64,000 nt of DNA from an uncultured Candidatus Saccharibacteria bacterium (GTDB taxonomy: Bacteria > Patescibacteriota > Minisyncoccia > Phycocordibacterales > UBA9973). Numbering within the stretch: position 1 is the stretch's first letter; each line of letters starts with the position of its first letter. This document shows positions 2,286-63,512 of this stretch, piece after piece. Location of the stretch: assembly GCA_964500465.1 (NCBI GenBank), contig CAZCNB010000001.1, positions 34,567-98,566 of the forward strand, in the 5' to 3' direction. The notes under the pieces were generated by a model. It did not search any database, was not told the DNA's origin, and saw nothing but the letters and a program-made list of their open reading frames with translations. A program made the position numbers and the translations under genes.

Positions 2286-3665
2286 ATGACTAAACGTTCT
2301 GTTGCTTCAAAGAAGCTCTGGAAAATTGGTGCGAAAGAATTTAATACTCAATATTTTGACTTTAATAAAGACGGCGACCTTATCATAAAGGAAGGTCACA
2401 ATATTTATAATGTTCGCTACTTAGCTGATAAGATGGGTACTTCACTTGAAATACTCATGCCTTTTGTTATTGAAGAGAGATTAGAAGACTTGCTCGATAC
2501 AGCTCATGCTCTTTCAAAGAAAACTGGATACAAAGGTAAATTCCTTTATCATTTCCCAATGAAGGTTAATCAAAATAAAGAAGCCGTTATGTCTATTGTA
2601 GGTGAAGGTGCGCATCTTGAAACTTCATCTTACAATGACCTGTATCTGATCAAGAAAATGCTAGAACAAGAATCTTTTAATCCTAATATTCGTATTCTAT
2701 GTAATGGCCCAAAGACCGATAAATACATGAACCTTATTGATGAACTTCAACACAAAGGAATGAAAATTTTTCCAATCATAGAAGGGCCAAATGAACTAAA
2801 ATTTCTTCAGCATTCAAAATACGATGTAGGTATCCGTATAGATATGCCAGTAAAAGCTCAGTCTATTTGGAACAAGCCAATTGATCGCTTTGGATTTTCT
2901 GCGAAAGAAATAATCGCAATGGGGCGCTTTAAGAACTTAAAAATTCTCCACTACCATATTGGTTCACAAATTGAGAAACTTTCTGATGTTATTGTACCTA
3001 TCAAATATGCCCTTGATATTTTCTTTAAATTAAAACAACAAAATCCGTCATTAGACACTCTTGATATTGGTGGAGGAATGCCTATCCCTTATGAGAGAAC
3101 AAAAAGTTATCCAGTAGATAAATTGCTTGAGAAAATATTTGAAGTTGTTAAAAAAGAATCTGAGAAAAGAGGAATGCCACATCCAAATATTATCTGTGAA
3201 TGGGGTCGCTATATTGCAGCACCAGCACAGATAAATATTTATAAAGTTATTGATACAAAAAAGATTCATAGTAAAAAAGCCGAAGCCGATAAATGGTATG
3301 TTATCGATGGTAGTTTTATGAACGACTTATGTGACACATGGGCTATAGGTCAAAAATGGGCAATAGCCCCAGTGAATAATAGCAATGACAAGAACCTCAC
3401 AAATGTCTGGCTTGCAGGATCAACTTGTGACTCAGATGACGTATATACAGGCACAAAGGGTTCTATAGAGCTTCCAGATTATGAAATGGATGAAAGTAAG
3501 CCAATGTATATAGCTGTATTTGATACTGGTGCATATGAAGATGCTCTAGTAATGCACCATTGTCTACTTTCTTCACCACTTAAGATCATTGCAGAAAATG
3601 GGCATATAGTTGTCGCTCGCAAACGTGAGACACCAGAAGAAGTTGGAAAAGTATTTGGTTGGTAA
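2286..3665 (+). CDS. speA: PLP-dependent arginine decarboxylase (fold-type III, SpeA-like)
   Basis: PMKVNQ PLP-lysine motif, DIGGGMPIPY, HYHIGSQ, CEWGRY motifs of Orn/Arg/DAP decarboxylase family; SpeA-like HxGSQ; adjacent agmatinase. Confidence 0.75.
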   Translation: MTKRSVASKKLWKIGAKEFNTQYFDFNKDGDLIIKEGHNIYNVRYLADKMGTSLEILMPFVIEERLEDLLDTAHALSKKTGYKGKFLYHFPMKVNQNKEAVMSIVGEGAHLETSSYNDLYLIKKMLEQESFNPNIRILCNGPKTDKYMNLIDELQHKGMKIFPIIEGPNELKFLQHSKYDVGIRIDMPVKAQSIWNKPIDRFGFSAKEIIAMGRFKNLKILHYHIGSQIEKLSDVIVPIKYALDIFFKLKQQNPSLDTLDIGGGMPIPYERTKSYPVDKLLEKIFEVVKKESEKRGMPHPNIICEWGRYIAAPAQINIYKVIDTKKIHSKKAEADKWYVIDGSFMNDLCDTWAIGQKWAIAPVNNSNDKNLTNVWLAGSTCDSDDVYTGTKGSIELPDYEMDESKPMYIAVFDTGAYEDALVMHHCLLSSPLKIIAENGHIVVARKRETPEEVGKVFGW

Positions 3666-3687
3666 TTATTATTAATAATAAATATAT

Positions 3688-4707
3688 ATGAACAATAATC
3701 TTCCTACATTAGAATTTATTTTAAAAAATTATAAGAATTTCAACGCTCGTGCTACTCGCGATGCACTCATTGCATATTGGAGGCATACAGAAAAAGGTGG
3801 CAAAATGTTCTGGGCTCTTGCTGGAGCTATGTCTTCAGCACAGCTTGGAATAGTTCTTGCTCCAGCTATTCGTGCTGGACTTATATCTGGAATATCATCA
3901 ACGGGTGCAAATCTTGAAGAGTCACTCTTCCGCCTCGTAGCTCATAATTCTTACAAAGATTTTCCAGATTACAGGTACTTCACAAAGGAACATGATACAA
4001 AAATATTAGAAGATAGAATGCGTCGCGTTACAGACACAAGTATTCCAGAAGATGAAGCATTTCGTGCTGTTGAAAAACACATAGTTCCTACATGGAAAGA
4101 AGCAACTGAAAAGGGAACACGTATGTTCTGGCATGAATACTTCTATGATCTTATTCAAAAAATAGACAAAGAAGACCATGAAGGCAAAGCAGATGAATGT
4201 TGGCTTCTTGCGGCAGCAGAGAATAATATTCCAATAGTTGTTCCAGGATATGAAGATTCAACATTTGGAAACATTTTTGCATCACACGTGAAAACTGGTG
4301 AATGCAATGCAAGTATTGTGAAGTCAGGTATTGAATACATGGCTGCTTGGTATGACCAATACAAAAAGTTGTCTGATGGGGAAGGAGTAGGATTCTTCCA
4401 AATTGGTGGAGGTATAGCAGGAGATTTCCCAATCTGCGTAGTGCCATCTATTAAATATGATCTTGGAGAAGATGTTAAACCATGGGCATATTTCTGCCAG
4501 ATTTCCGATTCTACTACCTCATACGGCTCATATTCAGGAGCTACTCCAAACGAAAAAATTACTTGGGATAAACTTACAAAAGACACACCAATGTTTGTTA
4601 TTGAATCAGATGCCACAATAGTTGCTCCACTCATACTCCAAGCCTTACTTGAAATGAAAGCAAATCCAAAAGAGGCGAATGAATTGATTTCAAAATATAC
4701 TGCATAA
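3688..4707 (+). CDS. Deoxyhypusine synthase-like protein (putative homospermidine synthase)
   Basis: SSTGANLEESL, NIPIVVPGYEDSTFGNIF, QIGGGIAGDF, SYSGATPNEKITWDKL align to DHS motifs including catalytic Lys (WxK). Confidence 0.75.
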   Translation: MNNNLPTLEFILKNYKNFNARATRDALIAYWRHTEKGGKMFWALAGAMSSAQLGIVLAPAIRAGLISGISSTGANLEESLFRLVAHNSYKDFPDYRYFTKEHDTKILEDRMRRVTDTSIPEDEAFRAVEKHIVPTWKEATEKGTRMFWHEYFYDLIQKIDKEDHEGKADECWLLAAAENNIPIVVPGYEDSTFGNIFASHVKTGECNASIVKSGIEYMAAWYDQYKKLSDGEGVGFFQIGGGIAGDFPICVVPSIKYDLGEDVKPWAYFCQISDSTTSYGSYSGATPNEKITWDKLTKDTPMFVIESDATIVAPLILQALLEMKANPKEANELISKYTA

Positions 4708-47407: not shown

Positions 47408-48361
47408 ATGCAGAAAGAATATAAAGTAATCCTTTTCTATAAATATGTGCATATAGATGACCCTAAAAGGGAACGTGAAGCTCAATTTGAGCTTGCAAAA
47501 CGACTAAACATGAAAGGTCGTATGATTATTGCTCATGAAGGGATAAACGGAACATTTGAAGGAAAAAATGAAGCTTGTGATGAATACATGAAAATAATGA
47601 AAGCTGATCCTAGGTTTTTTGATATTCACTGGAAAGTCAGCGATGGAACAATAGACGGTACAGCATTCCCAAGACTCTCTGTAAAAGTCCGCAAAGAGAT
47701 AGTATCACTACATCTAGGTGATGAAGCAGACATTGATCCAAACCAAACTACTGGAATACATCTTAAACCTGAAGAACTAAGAAAATGGTATGAGGAAGGT
47801 AAGAAATTTCATATTGTTGATATGAGAAATGATTACGAGCTTCGTGTTGGCAAGTTTGAAGGCACAGTCTTTCCAGATTTAAATAATTTTAGAGATCTTA
47901 AAGAAAACATAAAAAAAATTGAAGATTTAAAAGATACTACAGTTCTCACAGTTTGTACTGGAGGAGTACGTTGCGAGAAAGCATCGGGCCTGTTAGTTAG
48001 GGAAGGTTTTAAAGACGTATATCAACTAGATGGTGGAATAGTGAGTTATATGGAAAAATATCCAGGACAAGATTTTAAAGGCTCGCTCTATGTGTTTGAT
48101 AAACGTATCGTTATGAATTTTGACGACCCAAGCAAACACGAAGTGATTGGGCGCTGTAGTAAATGCGATAAACCTAGTGAGCACTATGTAAACTGTGCGA
48201 ACCTTATGTGCCATGAACACTTTATATGTTGTGAAAATTGTTTAAAAACTAGTGCAGAGGACCATCCGCCTTACGGAGAAGCTTATTGTAATACTTGGTG
48301 CAATTTAAAATGGAAGTGGTATAGGTTCAGAAAAAATTTAAAACTCAAATTTGCTAGGTAA
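47408..48361 (+). CDS. trhO: Rhodanese-domain tRNA U34 hydroxylase TrhO (YceA/UPF0176) with Cys-rich C-terminus
   Basis: VILFYKY N-terminus, rhodanese active-site CTGGVRCEKA, C-terminal CxxC clusters. Confidence 0.8.
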   Translation: MQKEYKVILFYKYVHIDDPKREREAQFELAKRLNMKGRMIIAHEGINGTFEGKNEACDEYMKIMKADPRFFDIHWKVSDGTIDGTAFPRLSVKVRKEIVSLHLGDEADIDPNQTTGIHLKPEELRKWYEEGKKFHIVDMRNDYELRVGKFEGTVFPDLNNFRDLKENIKKIEDLKDTTVLTVCTGGVRCEKASGLLVREGFKDVYQLDGGIVSYMEKYPGQDFKGSLYVFDKRIVMNFDDPSKHEVIGRCSKCDKPSEHYVNCANLMCHEHFICCENCLKTSAEDHPPYGEAYCNTWCNLKWKWYRFRKNLKLKFAR

Positions 48362-48393
48362 CAGTCTTTTTGTAGTTATCCACAGCTTTTTTA

Positions 48394-48422
48394 TTGACTG
48401 TGAACGTTCGTTCACTTATACT
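48394..48422 (+). promoter_or_regulatory. Sigma70-like promoter TTGACT-N17-TATACT with embedded LexA (Cheo-type) box GAACGTTCGTTC
   Basis: Read directly: ttgact(48394-99) gtgaacgttcgttcact tatact(48417-22); GAAC-N4-GTTC at 48402-48413; 39 bp upstream of the small ORF-lexA operon. Confidence 0.6.
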
Positions 48423-48460
48423 ATTTATATAGTTAATTAGTAGTAATTATTAATAAATAT

Positions 48461-48667
48461 ATGAATAGAGAACAATACGTAAAAATAATAGAAAAAGAAC
48501 TACAGGCTCTAAATAAGAGAATAGACATGAAAATTCTCCAAGGGGTTGAATACAGGAAGGAAGCCCGAGATCACAAGATACTGCAGAAGAAAATGATGCA
48601 ACATTCTCGCAAGGGAATATTTAGTAAATTCTTGACTGCTGTACCTCAATTTATGATATTCTTTTAA
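48461..48667 (+). CDS. 68-aa protein with C-terminal hydrophobic tail, first gene of lexA operon
   Basis: ORF ends 3 nt before lexA start; helical/charged N-terminus, IFSKFLTAVPQFMIFF tail. Confidence 0.4.
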   Translation: MNREQYVKIIEKELQALNKRIDMKILQGVEYRKEARDHKILQKKMMQHSRKGIFSKFLTAVPQFMIFF

Positions 48668-48670
48668 TAT

Positions 48671-49237
48671 ATGAATGAAGATTACAAATTAAAACTCCAA
48701 TCCTTCTACCAACGAGAAAAACGCATGCCTACTTATGCAGAGATGATGAAGCTTTTTGGATTTAAATCAAAAAATGCTGTTGCACGCGTAGTTGATAAAT
48801 TCATAGAAGCAGGTATAGCGACAAAAGATCATCTTGGCCGACTACTTCCAAATGATTCCTTTAACAATGTTCCTCTCCTTGGTTCCGTAACTGCAGGATT
48901 TCCTGTAGATGTTGAAGAAGAAATGAAAGAAGCTATAAACCTAGATAACTACTTAATAAACAAAAAGGAAAATACCTATATGCTAGAAGTTGATGGTAAT
49001 TCCATGATTGACGCTCATATTGCCGATGGAGATATGGTTATTGTTGAAAAAACTAATGTAGCTCGCAACGGTGATATAGTGATAGCAAACGTTGATGGCG
49101 AATTTACAATGAAATATTTTAAAAAAGAAGGAGAGAAAGTTTGGCTGGAACCAGCAAATAAGGATTTTAAACCAATATACCCTAAACAATATTTAAATAT
49201 AAATGCAGTCGTAAAAGCTGTAATAAGAAAGTACTAA
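48671..49237 (+). CDS. lexA: SOS repressor LexA
   Basis: N-terminal HTH, cleavage-site VTAGFP (Ala-Gly), S24 peptidase Ser (DGNSM) and Lys. Confidence 0.85.
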   Translation: MNEDYKLKLQSFYQREKRMPTYAEMMKLFGFKSKNAVARVVDKFIEAGIATKDHLGRLLPNDSFNNVPLLGSVTAGFPVDVEEEMKEAINLDNYLINKKENTYMLEVDGNSMIDAHIADGDMVIVEKTNVARNGDIVIANVDGEFTMKYFKKEGEKVWLEPANKDFKPIYPKQYLNINAVVKAVIRKY

Positions 49238-49238
49238 T

Positions 49239-49532
49239 ATGAAAAAAGTAAAGAAACTTAGTCTTTTTACTGAGAGAGTTCTAAATGTTGTATCAAGTAT
49301 AAAAAGAGGTGAGACTATGACTTATAAAGAGGTAGCAACTCGTGCGGGTAGCTCAGGGGCAGCACGGGCTGTAGGTTCAATAATGAAGGCAAACTATCGA
49401 CCCAATGTACCATGTCATAGGGTTATTCGTAGTGATGGGAATATAGGAGATTATAATCGCGGTGGTAGAGGCGCAAAATTTAATAAGTTGAAAAGTGAAG
49501 GTGCTATTTTTAAAAATATTGATTATAATTAA
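49239..49532 (+). CDS. MGMT-family DNA-binding/alkyltransferase domain protein (stand-alone C-terminal domain, active-site Cys retained)
   Basis: TYKEVA..GSSGAARAVGSIMKANY..VPCHRVIRSDGNIGDY (PCHRV motif). Confidence 0.7.
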   Translation: MKKVKKLSLFTERVLNVVSSIKRGETMTYKEVATRAGSSGAARAVGSIMKANYRPNVPCHRVIRSDGNIGDYNRGGRGAKFNKLKSEGAIFKNIDYN

Positions 49533-49538
49533 ATCAAT

Positions 49539-50084
49539 ATGAAAGCAAAATTGATTTCAATACTTATAGGTCTAGCATTAGTAGTCGGAACCGGCACTTT
49601 AGTTTATAAAACAAAAAAACCGGTAGTCTTGCCATCCGATGAGGCTACAGAAAGTCAATCGACTATAAATAATACTAATGGGGTCCAGAATCAAATACCG
49701 GCAAGCAACAATACCACTACAACCTCCAAAAACAAATCTTTGTTCGATGACGACGATGAAGACGATGATGAGGATTTCAAAAGTAGTAGCAATTTAAATA
49801 CTACAGTAGTTACTCCTAAACCAACAACCACTACAACAACTACTACTTCAAGTGGTATTACTCTTACTACAATCGCAAAGCATAACAATAGATCTAGTTG
49901 TTGGTCAGCAGTAAACGGTAACGTATACGATTTAACTAGTTGGATACCAAATCACCCTGGAGGAGAACAAGCAATTTTGTCTATGTGTGGAGTAGATGGA
50001 TCAAATGGATACAATGGTCAACACAGTGGAGGTAAACCAGCTAGAATATTAGCAGGATTTAAAATAGGCACTCTTTCAAAATAA
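49539..50084 (+). CDS. Membrane-anchored cytochrome b5-like heme-binding domain protein with Thr-rich/acidic linker
   Basis: N-terminal TM; HNNRSSCWSAVNGNVYDLTSWIPNHPGG...GQHS matches cyt b5 HPGG motif and both heme-ligand His positions. Confidence 0.65.
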   Translation: MKAKLISILIGLALVVGTGTLVYKTKKPVVLPSDEATESQSTINNTNGVQNQIPASNNTTTTSKNKSLFDDDDEDDDEDFKSSSNLNTTVVTPKPTTTTTTTTSSGITLTTIAKHNNRSSCWSAVNGNVYDLTSWIPNHPGGEQAILSMCGVDGSNGYNGQHSGGKPARILAGFKIGTLSK

Positions 50085-50086
50085 TT

Positions 50087-50482
50087 ATGAATATAAATTT
50101 AACTAGACAAGAATTTGGTTTGCATTTACTGAGGCTTGGTCTTGCTGCAGTTTTCTTGTGGTTCGGATTCTCTCAATTGATGGACGGAATACACTGGGTA
50201 ACGATAGTTCCAGATTGGGCTGTTAGCTTTCTACATCTTCCACCAGCAATGATTGTGTTATTAAATGGATCATTTGAGGTAATTATGGCTACACTTCTTG
50301 CTATGGGATTTTTCGTGAGAATAACATCACTAGTACTTGCTTTACATCTATTACTTATAGCTTTTGACTTTGGATTTACTGCTACTGGTATAAGAGACCT
50401 TGGTCTTGTAATAGCAACTCTTGCTCTTTCTTTTATATTCACGAGAAAATCTTCTATTGAAGAAGTATCAATTATAAAATAA
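50087..50482 (+). CDS. DoxX-family membrane protein
   Basis: LLRLGLAAVFLWFGFSQL DoxX signature, 4 TM. Confidence 0.75.
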   Translation: MNINLTRQEFGLHLLRLGLAAVFLWFGFSQLMDGIHWVTIVPDWAVSFLHLPPAMIVLLNGSFEVIMATLLAMGFFVRITSLVLALHLLLIAFDFGFTATGIRDLGLVIATLALSFIFTRKSSIEEVSIIK

Positions 50483-50495
50483 TATTTATTCATAT

Positions 50496-50915
50496 ATGGA
50501 AATAAACATTTGGGCGGTGTTAGTGTGCACAATTTTAACTCTTGTCATAGGATTCATTTGGTATGGGCCAATTTTCGGAAAGAAATGGATGGAAATAACT
50601 GGAGCAGATAAGATGGATATGGAAAGAAGAAAAGAGATGATGAAAGGTGTATGGAAACTATATATTGCTCAAATAGCTTTAGCACTTCTTCAAGTATATG
50701 TTCTTGCTTGGTACATAAATACAATAGGAAACATATCTTCTGGTATTCATACTGCATTCTCTATATGGCTTGCATTTGTTATGCCTACTATTGCTGGAAC
50801 TGCAATGTGGAATAACGATTCAGCTAAAATATCTTGGGCTCGTTTCTTTATCCAATCTGGATATCAATTAATTATATTTATAGTATTTGGATTAATTCTT
50901 AGTTTTTGGAAATAG
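50496..50915 (+). CDS. Membrane protein (DUF1761-like)
   Basis: 4 TM, FIWYGPIFGKKW N-terminus. Confidence 0.4.
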   Translation: MEINIWAVLVCTILTLVIGFIWYGPIFGKKWMEITGADKMDMERRKEMMKGVWKLYIAQIALALLQVYVLAWYINTIGNISSGIHTAFSIWLAFVMPTIAGTAMWNNDSAKISWARFFIQSGYQLIIFIVFGLILSFWK

Positions 50916-52332: not shown

Positions 52333-52504
52333 TATTTAATTGACAGAAGTAGACATTTGTATCCTAAAGTTAAACTGTGGATAAGTCGCTATCATTAATT
52401 TTAAATAAGAGTAATATATGTAATGAGTCTCGTAAGTATGACGGATACGATCGTAAGTGAATATCTTCAATAGCAATATTGATAGCGCTTGTGAGTCTCA
52501 TAAA

Positions 52505-52530
52505 GAAAACCCCATCAGGGGCTTTTTTTA
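52505..52530 (+). terminator. Intrinsic terminator
   Basis: aaaaccccatcaggggcttttttt. Confidence 0.65.
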
Positions 52531-61244: not shown

Positions 61245-61366
61245 AAAATATATTTTATTATATTGTAATTTAAAATCTGATATTTGATATTTAGTTTTAT
61301 GGTTCTTAAAGTAGATTATTTAGTCTGTTTTAAGAACTATAAAACTTAAACTACAAAAATCTGATT

Positions 61367-61801
61367 ATGAAAAAAGATGTAAAAAACTTCCTGCTGGGAA
61401 TAAACAATCAATTATCACAACTTGATCTGTCAAAACCACTGACACCTGCACAGGCGAAAGAAGAAGCCATGAGAATTGTTTCGACAATTCCAAACATGGT
61501 GAAAAATTATTTTTTAATGAGGGAACAGATCCAGGTTTCTCCATTTGAAATAACAGTTTATTCCTTATATCAAAAGGAACTGGCAATGAAGGAACCTTTC
61601 GGTGGAGAACCTAAAAATCATTACAAAACCTTTAAAAAGGGTACTGTAGGATATTATCTCTGCCAGTACCTCTATGTCCTGGGATTTTATTTCCGGGTAT
61701 GGTGCGGCAAAATCGATATTTTAATGACATTACTTGGTGGAAGCACCGAGGAAACATTAAACTTTCTTCAACCAATAACCGAAGTAAATATCATTGATTA
61801 A
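61367..61801 (+). CDS. Hypothetical protein
   Basis: ORF only. Confidence 0.3.
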   Translation: MKKDVKNFLLGINNQLSQLDLSKPLTPAQAKEEAMRIVSTIPNMVKNYFLMREQIQVSPFEITVYSLYQKELAMKEPFGGEPKNHYKTFKKGTVGYYLCQYLYVLGFYFRVWCGKIDILMTLLGGSTEETLNFLQPITEVNIID

Positions 61802-62285: not shown

Positions 62286-63512
62286 ATGAGAGATAACGTC
62301 ACTCAAAATTTATTCCTTCACGCCGATGGAGATTCATTCTTCGTCGCTTGTGAATTAGTTGTAAACCCACAATATAAGGGTTTACCTGTAGTTGTTGGAG
62401 AAGACAGGGGAATAGCTGTAGCTATGAGTTACGAAGCAAAGAAACTCGGTGTAACTCGCGGTATGCCAGTATTTAAGATAAAGAAACAATTCCCACAAGT
62501 TATTATACTTCCGCATCATTTTGACCTATACAGAGAAATTTCAAGTAGTGTTTATGATATTCTTTCGTCCTACTTAGTTGAAGTTGAGCAATACAGTATC
62601 GACGAATGTTTTGCACTGGTAAAGCCTTCTGATATCACACACGCAGGTGGAGCTAATAAACTATTGAAGGATATTAAAAATGAGATTGAAAAGAAACTCG
62701 GAGTAACATTCTCTCTAGGACTTGCACGCACAAAAGCTTTGGCTAAAACTGCTTCGAAATTAGAGAAACCAAATGGCATTGTATTACTTATGAATAATAA
62801 TGACGAAGAGCAGGCTTTAAAAAAGACAGCTATTGAAGATGTTTGGGGTATTGGAAGACGTACCGTACCAAGATTACTTTCAATGGGAATAAAAACTGCA
62901 TATGATTTTGTGCATTACCCAAGTAGTACTATAGAGAAAAACTTTTTCGAACCATTAGTTTTACTACAACAAGAACTTGCAGGTATATCACACTATGACA
63001 TTGATTCGAATCCCGATCCGAGAGATCAGAAATCTATTCAATCAACTGCAACATTTAAACCATCGTCTTCTGATCCAAAGATAATATTTGCGGAACTTTC
63101 AGAAAATGTAGAGCACGCATGTGAACATGCTAGAGAACTTGATCTAATGACAAACTCTGTTTCTTTATTTATTAAAAATACTGAGTTTATACATAGGACA
63201 GGAGATACACATCTATCAGTTTATACATGCGATCCAAGTATAATACTAAACGCAATCGAACCTGTGTTTTACAAAATATTACGAAAAGGGGAAATGATTC
63301 GCTCAACTGGAATAACATTACAAAATTTACGTCGTAGTGAAGACGTACCTCAAGATTTATTTGGTGCACAAAAGAAATCAGAAGCAAAAGATGTAATTGA
63401 AAGAGTAGGGGATTTAATAAGAAAAAAATTTGGCCATAACGCACTTAAACGCGCATCCTCACTAAAGGGACAAGGGAGAAAAAGAGGGAATTCTTTTCCT
63501 GGGACAAGATAA
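62286..63512 (+). CDS. dinB: Y-family DNA polymerase IV
   Basis: LHADGDSFFVACE, VAMSYEAKKLGV, SIDECF catalytic motifs. Confidence 0.85.
   Translation: MRDNVTQNLFLHADGDSFFVACELVVNPQYKGLPVVVGEDRGIAVAMSYEAKKLGVTRGMPVFKIKKQFPQVIILPHHFDLYREISSSVYDILSSYLVEVEQYSIDECFALVKPSDITHAGGANKLLKDIKNEIEKKLGVTFSLGLARTKALAKTASKLEKPNGIVLLMNNNDEEQALKKTAIEDVWGIGRRTVPRLLSMGIKTAYDFVHYPSSTIEKNFFEPLVLLQQELAGISHYDIDSNPDPRDQKSIQSTATFKPSSSDPKIIFAELSENVEHACEHARELDLMTNSVSLFIKNTEFIHRTGDTHLSVYTCDPSIILNAIEPVFYKILRKGEMIRSTGITLQNLRRSEDVPQDLFGAQKKSEAKDVIERVGDLIRKKFGHNALKRASSLKGQGRKRGNSFPGTR

Follow-up and report, generated by a model that had tools for sequence, protein, structure and literature searches.

What is the role of a 68-residue protein whose gene is placed between a LexA-type promoter and lexA itself? 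The question is raised by a 64-kb stretch of DNA (the window) on contig CAZCNB010000001.1, assigned to an uncultured Candidatus Saccharibacteria bacterium, in which a short open reading frame (ORF) directly precedes the gene of the SOS repressor LexA; statements about the sequence itself refer to positions 48100-49600 of the window. By comparison with its relatives, the regulatory anatomy of the locus is very probably that of an autoregulated SOS operon of a Patescibacteria (Paceibacteria-type) genome. The small gene was found next to lexA in every context compared, and the promoter in front of the pair carries a conserved match to the DnaA-box consensus (48376-48384), a feature absent from an earlier reading made from the letters of this DNA (the sequence-only reading). 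The protein itself is tentatively read as a checkpoint effector for DNA damage and replication stress.

The lexA promoter and its operator

The features of the locus are listed in their order along the + strand, with lengths in nucleotides (nt) and amino acids (aa).

48376-48384 (+): DnaA-box consensus TTATCCACA, perfect match, 9 nt upstream of the -35 hexamer
48394-48399 (+): -35 hexamer TTGACT; TTGAC is conserved across related loci
48400-48415 (+): putative LexA operator GTGAAC-GTTC-GTTCAC, which fills the -35/-10 spacer
48417-48422 (+): -10 hexamer TATACT; the consensus of the relatives is TATACT or TATAAT
48429-48460 (+): predicted leader of about 32 nt, A/T-rich, without a Shine-Dalgarno sequence and with a weak 5' hairpin
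48461-48667 (+): small ORF, 68 aa, with ATG at 48461 and TAA at 48665-48667
48671-49237 (+): lexA, 188 aa, in the same frame as the small ORF and 3 nt past its stop
49239-49532 (+): O6-alkylguanine-DNA alkyltransferase domain protein, 97 aa, with the active site PCHRV

The promoter elements were read directly from the sequence. The two hexamers are separated by a 17-nt spacer consisting of GTGAACGTTCGTTCAC plus one base, and TTGACT-N17-TATACT is the top sigma-70-type promoter match within 47-51 kb (10 of 12 positions). The Cheo-type core GAAC-N4-GTTC (GAACGTTCGTTC, 48402-48413) lies inside the 16-nt palindrome GTGAAC-N4-GTTCAC, and 38 nt separate the -10 hexamer from the ATG of the small ORF. 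The sequence-only reading had proposed this promoter with the core in its spacer, its position just upstream of the 68-aa ORF and a stop codon 3 nt ahead of the next gene, all of which agrees with the coordinates above; it had further named that next gene as lexA and the promoter as a LexA-autoregulated SOS promoter, and both proposals gained support from the protein matches and the comparison of relatives.

Regarding the downstream gene, its 188-aa product scored 143.4 bits on TIGR00498, the NCBIfam LexA equivalog (cut-off 110.95), with residues 12-187 covered, and matched Peptidase_S24 at 2.6e-31; the Pfam LexA_DNA_bind domain alone was weak (E = 0.065). In the alignment with Escherichia coli LexA, VTAG falls on VAAG (the Ala-Gly cleavage site), GNSM on GMSM (the catalytic Ser) and TMKY on TVKR (the catalytic Lys). 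Judged by these matches, the product is a true LexA, and it would be expected to bind the operator in front of its own operon.

In the window alone, the promoter features do not rise above chance: GAAC-N4-GTTC was observed once (0.6 expected), and promoter-like sites were fewer than in shuffled sequence (12 observed, 18 in shuffles). Their significance therefore rests on comparison among relatives, for which a promoter footprint was prepared from 33 related sequences anchored on the palindrome (581 kb in total). The 12 half-site bases of GTGAAC-N4-GTTCAC were invariant in 33/33 sequences, TTGAC and TATA.T were essentially invariant and the flanking bases varied; over the same related set the synonymous sites of the small ORF were saturated. 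Each sequence had a single copy of the palindrome, placed without exception between the -35 and -10 hexamers upstream of the small ORF. Over all 40 loci compared the 16-nt palindrome was unchanged, and it lay in this spacer wherever the promoter was legible.

The design extends to loci without the small gene. A metagenome scan for the perfect palindrome returned mostly unrelated high-GC matches, and also lexA promoters with and without the small gene; TTGACA-n-GTGAACGnnCGTTCAC-TATAnT was found directly ahead of lexA in 12 other lineages, at GC contents of 0.38-0.70. The promoter is therefore an old autoregulatory one, into which the small gene was inserted later. From established promoter biology, LexA bound at an operator in the spacer should repress by blocking RNA polymerase. 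A LexA box and autoregulation of lexA are already known in kind in Patescibacteria, whose SOS network reportedly comprises a small regulon including ribonucleotide reductase.

Near-miss palindromes occurred at chance level in the 581 kb with one exception, a one-mismatch palindrome (GTGAACTAGTGTTCAG) at L030:8080-8095, about 45 nt upstream of an ATP-cone ribonucleotide reductase (nrd) operon. It is the sole candidate operator apart from those of lexA in the 581 kb, which does not include the recA and uvrA regions. Its place would agree with the ribonucleotide reductase reported for the small regulon. For the Y-family (Pol IV-like) polymerase gene of the window (62286-63512, +), no LexA box was found anywhere upstream.

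The transcription start in the window was placed from the -10 hexamer only, and the leader that follows from it is thus a prediction. Its hairpin is weak (-2 to -7 kcal/mol) and not present in every relative, and the arms vary among relatives in compensatory fashion (GATTAAT/ATTAATC, GATTAT/ATAATC, GACC/GGTC); an Rfam scan of 47-54 kb gave no known RNA family. In L025, L029, L030, L031, L032 and L130 the ATG of the small gene lies 6-7 nt past the -10 hexamer, which probably makes their mRNAs leaderless. In other lineages 30-80 nt of leader precede the ATG; these leaders lack a Shine-Dalgarno sequence and contain a small hairpin, which shows compensatory changes, and a TTAGTAA-like motif that recurs.

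Two further arrangements of LexA-type boxes were seen. Tandem palindromes, 5-10 nt apart, occur at L126:669-712, L125:12553, L105:8038, L044:10802-10842 and L076:1009, and in several of these metagenomic lineages the boxes lie at lexA-type promoters of high-GC organisms. At L111:11736 (+), the same type of LexA-box promoter stands before an ORF of about 96 aa that has no leader; its product has an S24 peptidase domain only, and is thus UmuD-like and without a DNA-binding domain.

The small gene, the DnaA-box consensus and the protein family

The small gene adjoined lexA in 40/40 contexts, over a range of 28-94% identity and in both gene orders. In 26 species-representative genomes lexA came directly after it every time and the other neighbours varied, and the same pair was present in seven distant members (28-49% identity) and in seven metagenomic loci. 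The stop of the small gene and the start of lexA overlap or sit 3-30 nt apart, the overlap in L016-L022 being ATGCGTAA. The inverted order is found in L054 (about 2600-3720, - strand), where a leaderless lexA stands first after the LexA-box promoter and the small gene second. In a neighbour-joining tree, the LexAs of loci with the small gene formed a single clade, with nine LexAs that have the same promoter but no small gene outside it; the small gene was therefore gained once and kept in every sampled descendant. L109 (- strand) has a further ORF, of about 63 aa, situated between the small gene and lexA; the C-terminal end of its product is likewise basic and hydrophobic (...SRKGFLARVLGN), and it may represent a paralogue that has diverged.

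The 9-mer TTATCCACA is the textbook DnaA-box consensus (PMC8203912). It was perfect in 31/33 of the related promoters and had one mismatch in the other 2/33 (TTTTCCACA and TTATACACA), on the same strand throughout and 6-25 nt (mostly 14-17) upstream of the LexA palindrome. Among six further metagenomic promoters of the small ORF it was perfect in four and had one mismatch in one. Taken together, the box was present within one mismatch at 38/39 promoters with the small gene, as compared with 0/12 upstream of lexA promoters without it. In 11 of the 12 same-design promoters without the small ORF the 9-mer was absent from -200 to +250; in the remaining one, a reversed box lies inside a long leader. 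By chance, 0.8 occurrences of the 9-mer are expected per 64 kb. DnaA would be predicted to bind at 48376-48384. Box and small gene were acquired jointly in one LexA clade, which has retained the box ever since. As the small gene was acquired a single time, the association of the two represents one evolutionary event; even so, their strict joint retention is worth noting.

Other promoters have this 9-mer as well, 5-17 nt upstream of a -35-like hexamer: L008:15878, L019:6621 (-), L030:1766 (-) and L022:18998, in the last case as a tandem pair of TTATCCACA and TTATGCACA. The genes behind these other promoters include a DEAD-box helicase gene and a PadR-PspC operon, which suggests a wider regulon for whatever protein binds the 9-mer. 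The DnaA-like box of L054 is TTGTCCACA.

Close relatives of the 68-aa protein formed 43 clusters (60-94% identity). A profile search of 1.8 billion representatives yielded 258 clusters at E <= 0.001, counted as 50%-identity representatives and nearly all of 60-75 aa. Conservation of the small ORF, on which the sequence-only reading had staked its proposal, was thus found throughout these 258 clusters, and the ORF is co-operonic with lexA. The named sources of the family are Patescibacteria (Paceibacteria, Nomurabacteria, Taylorbacteria and Vogelbacteria), and to judge from them it is seen only in one Patescibacteria clade. (Note that the taxonomic labels of the metagenome-assembled genomes are inconsistent in several cases, some reading Saccharibacteria and one, L024, Burkholderiales.) In 12 close orthologues, the mean proportion of non-synonymous differences (pN) was 0.12, as against 0.78 for synonymous differences (pS), the synonymous sites being saturated; by these values and by the conservation of the family, the small ORF is a real and strongly constrained gene.

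No match to the 68-aa protein was found in Pfam, NCBIfam, PHROGs or the PDB sequences. Scans of 35 family members gave no consistent match in Pfam or NCBIfam, and in PHROGs a single member matched one family (E = 0.0026) and none was shared. The label 'glutamate mutase epsilon subunit', given to the homologue P0012 by one source, and a weak match to TIGR01503 (12.6 bits against a cut-off of 390) are both spurious. As far as these database searches reach, the small protein founds an unannotated family of at least 258 clusters. A phage origin of the gene was rejected, as no relatives of the protein were found in viral contigs, and an origin by duplication of part of LexA was likewise rejected (hhalign probability 0.6%).

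The family signature is E.E...LN..ID.KI..G..Y..EA..HK.L, with M1, N18, I21, D22, G28, Y31 and H38 invariant; it is followed by a linker of 0-30 residues and a short C-terminal tail rich in Phe, Leu, Trp, Arg and Lys. AlphaFold2 predicts a helical hairpin (helices 3-27 and 32-48) with a predicted local distance difference test score above 90 for residues 11-40 and of about 50 in the tail; fold searches with the protein returned only generic helix bundles. The isoelectric point (pI) of the window protein is 10.1, within a range of 9.6-11.4 for 32 family members.

Regarding the tail, the sequence-only reading had described a tail-anchored-like protein, a description that did not hold. The maximum 19-residue Kyte-Doolittle hydropathy was -0.44 to 0.93 in the 32 members, below the transmembrane threshold of about 1.6, and the longest run without D, E, K or R was 4-12 residues. 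Arg, Lys and Pro occur inside the tail in family members, and many orthologues stop at ...PQF, four residues short of the window protein, while others end in ...LFFRTNIYA or ...RIASFF. A transmembrane tail anchor was accordingly rejected on hydropathy, length, charge and the shorter orthologues: the tail is too short, too variable and too charged. Its 13-17 residues, its aromatic and basic side chains and its high hydrophobic moment as a helix (0.4-0.85) point to an amphipathic peptide that would seek a surface or dock onto a partner, or to a hydrophobic degron. In the distant homologue P0187 the C-terminus does include a true hydrophobic segment, about 20 residues long, so that a membrane-proximal site of action stays plausible. 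A beta-clamp-binding motif, suggested by eye from the C-terminal QFMIF, was rejected, as most members end in PQF, IYA, SFF or similar residues and have no Gln in the tail.

Possible roles of the small protein

On the reading that is tentatively preferred, and that could well prove wrong, the small protein would be a checkpoint effector for damage and replication stress, peripheral or amphipathic and without a transmembrane segment. LexA bound in the spacer would keep RNA polymerase off the promoter. A single transcript would encode the 68-aa protein first and then LexA, translationally coupled, with the alkyltransferase gene probably following. Upon DNA damage, RecA-stimulated self-cleavage of LexA would derepress the operon, and DnaA at its box would modulate the same promoter by replication status. 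The effector would most likely delay division, or possibly replication initiation, with the conserved hairpin binding the target and the tail binding the membrane surface or acting as a protease degron.

This checkpoint role is favoured because SOS division inhibitors are recurrently placed next to lexA (PMC6851548, PMC13396833), because the architecture of hairpin, linker and amphipathic tail resembles that of membrane-targeting helices, because P0187 carries a true hydrophobic segment, and because an input of replication status was gained jointly with the gene, in parallel to sda of Bacillus subtilis. A place beside lexA is typical of the genes for small SOS division inhibitors (PMC6851548); YneA (B. 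subtilis), SosA (Staphylococcus aureus), ChiZ (Mycobacterium tuberculosis) and DivS (Corynebacterium glutamicum) are likewise small, fast-evolving, LexA-controlled and lexA-linked (PMC6851548, PMC13396833). They differ in having one transmembrane segment and an extracellular part (with LysM in YneA and ChiZ) and in being divergent from lexA, whereas the small protein has neither a transmembrane segment nor LysM, is predicted to be cytoplasmic and is encoded on the lexA mRNA.

SulA is likewise a cytoplasmic effector of the SOS response; its gene can share a transcript with lexA, and its level is held down by proteolysis. An operon arrangement lexA-sulA is found in Pseudomonas. SulA is, however, a protein of about 160 aa with a RecA-like fold, as opposed to a helical hairpin of 68 aa, and neither the small protein nor the 35 members matched the SulA family in Pfam scans.

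The parallel to sda concerns the promoter and the fold. This checkpoint gene of B. subtilis is under DnaA-box control and signals replication trouble (PMC8203912), and Sda is likewise a helical hairpin, of about 50 aa, encoded by a gene with DnaA boxes (PMC8203912). The target of Sda is a sporulation kinase, which is irrelevant here, and sda lies outside the lexA operon. Homology of the two proteins was rejected at an hhalign probability of 3% (Sda sequence verified against PDB 1pv0). The C-terminal residues of Sda are a ClpXP degron. A DnaA box and a LexA box on one SOS promoter are also found in E. coli, where uvrB and recN are under dual control by DnaA and LexA (Wurihan et al. 2018, as summarised in PMC8203912); the difference is that here the dual control would sit on the lexA promoter itself and be tied to the small gene. 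No report of DnaA control on a lexA promoter was found.

Several points weigh against a checkpoint effector. Binding by DnaA and LexA is deduced from motifs, and the link between box and small gene, resting on one evolutionary event, is not statistically independent. Neither the protein nor the 35 members showed homology to SulA-, YneA-, SosA- or ChiZ-type proteins or a LysM domain in Pfam and NCBIfam, and the transmembrane segment common to YneA-, SosA-, ChiZ- and SidA-type inhibitors (PMC6851548) is missing from the small protein. Since its gene stands ahead of lexA on one mRNA, the product is necessarily made whenever LexA is made, in unstressed cells as well, which would be hard to reconcile with a strong inhibitor short of rapid degradation. 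Finally, the strict pairing in both gene orders and the overlapping stop and start suit a physical partner of LexA equally well.

Such a dedicated LexA partner, a co-repressor or modulator of self-cleavage made in step with LexA and bound through the hairpin, is the first of the other explanations, and is regarded as rather doubtful. The adjacency in 40/40 contexts and both gene orders would follow naturally from it, as would the close or overlapping stop and start, which imply coupled translation, the necessary co-expression with LexA in unstressed cells and the invariant polar residues of the hairpin (N18, D22, Y31 and H38). Precedents exist in gp7 of phage GIL01, which binds LexA, strengthens its operator binding and blocks RecA-mediated cleavage, and in DdrR of Acinetobacter, which acts with UmuDAb (PMC4551915, PMC7273328). 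Both are small, co-regulated with a repressor of the S24 family and act through that repressor; the likeness of the small protein to them consists in its genetic linkage. They differ from it in that gp7 is phage-encoded and DdrR is divergently transcribed and confined to Acinetobacter, whereas the present family is chromosomal, clade-wide and equipped with a hydrophobic tail; no PHROGs match shared among the 35 members ties it to a phage family, the one member with a match (E = 0.0026) leaving no consistent family. It also speaks against a LexA partner that LexAs of sister lineages, with the same operator and promoter design, work without the small protein, that the conserved hydrophobic tail and the P0187 segment would have no obvious role in a soluble co-repressor, and that the joint gain of the DnaA box is left unexplained.

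A broader proposal, at present speculative and more doubtful than not, sees the SOS switch of one large Patescibacteria clade as a module of two proteins: LexA and an obligatory small helical partner that acts on it or alongside it, for example by tethering, stabilising or antagonising it, the partner having been gained once together with the DnaA box and lost in no sampled locus. If so, the master SOS promoter would directly integrate DNA damage (through LexA) and replication status (through DnaA), an SOS layer that is new with respect to model bacteria.

It is unlikely that the protein has some other role in DNA transactions, be it as a protein that modulates the RecA filament in the manner of DinI or RecX, one that inhibits DnaA or the initiation of replication, or a basic binder of nucleic acids, and sits in the lexA operon merely for SOS control. 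The pI of the family (9.6-11.4) and the hairpin, a frequent fold of small regulators, would suit such a role, and from the DnaA box some feedback with the initiation of replication may be suspected. Small modulators of RecA, such as DinI and RecX, are common members of SOS regulons; they are, however, usually linked to recA and not to lexA. Neither in sequence nor in fold does the small protein resemble DinI, RecX, Sda or any other characterised family, and its tail would again be unexplained.

That the ORF is a leader tuning the translation of lexA, with a functionless peptide, is hardly credible: its place directly upstream of lexA, the close or overlapping stop and start and the leaders without Shine-Dalgarno sequence, by which lexA translation may depend on coupling, are outweighed by the strong purifying selection on its amino acids at saturated synonymous sites, the family-wide invariant residues, the confidently predicted fold and the position of the gene downstream of a leaderless lexA in L054, so that the order in L054 and the selection data exclude a mere leader-peptide role.

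Compared with known Cheo-type lexA promoters, the locus shares the GAAC-N4-GTTC core over the own promoter of lexA and a LexA with intact cleavage site and catalytic dyad, and differs in the obligatory small gene before (rarely after) lexA and in the DnaA-box consensus. Three features appear to be new: a family of small genes that is unannotated, clade-wide and tied to lexA, a protein architecture without a membrane-spanning segment, and a conserved DnaA-box consensus on a lexA promoter. Patescibacteria (Candidate Phyla Radiation) are abundant, mostly uncultured bacteria with tiny genomes, in which the coupling of DNA damage, replication and division is little known. The locus offers a tractable module that is fixed across a whole clade, with a 16-nt operator, a 9-nt DnaA-box consensus and a family of about 65 residues with six invariant residues. 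A checkpoint effector would be of a new type that does not span the membrane, and a LexA partner would be the first chromosomal and clade-wide one; either would place a DnaA input directly on the master SOS promoter. As the family is without Pfam or NCBIfam annotation, a name for it would benefit the annotation of genomes in their hundreds.

Downstream genes and other observations

The alkyltransferase gene starts 1 nt past lexA, and its product matched Pfam DNA_binding_1 (4.2e-25) and TIGR00589 (72 bits). No terminator-like site was found on the + strand between the genes, and the alkyltransferase gene is probably co-transcribed with lexA. In the relatives, lexA is followed by a PIF1-like helicase and then MGMT, by restriction-modification inserts, by a Y-family polymerase or by RarA. 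The repair genes among these (PIF1 helicase, MGMT, Y-family polymerase and RarA) share the operon with lexA and support its reading as an SOS operon, as does the one-mismatch box ahead of nrd in L030. The PIF1-like helicase (about 556 aa, with a C-terminal HTH_40) lies between lexA and MGMT in L001-L010 and L014, in a slot of about +790 to +2460 from the start of the small gene; most close relatives have it and the window does not. DNA methyltransferase or restriction-type genes occupy this slot in L011 and L016, and the site downstream of lexA is therefore a variable hot spot.

The polymerase orthologous to that at 62286-63512 of the window sits in the lexA operon in L002 and L028. In the window it is preceded by an ORF at 61367, upstream of which a 9-nt inverted repeat, GTTCTTAAA...TTTAAGAAC, occurs at 61301-61338.

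Directly behind MGMT, the window (49539-50915, +) has three genes, with gaps of 2-13 nt. The first encodes a secreted protein with a cytochrome b5 domain, rich in Thr and Asp, the second a membrane protein of the DoxX type and the third a DUF1761 protein; the trio also follows MGMT in L004 and L011. If these genes were co-transcribed with the operon, redox and membrane genes would likewise be under the SOS promoter.

A candidate small non-coding RNA was noted at 52341-52530 (+) of the window, with a TTGACA promoter, a length of about 140 nt and a rho-independent terminator at 52507-52530. It had no Rfam match and a folding z-score of only -1.7. An invariant reversed DnaA-box consensus, TGTGGATAA (52376-52384), lies near the start of the transcript, and in the four genomes compared (the window, L003, L005 and L011) the candidate is far better conserved than coding third positions.

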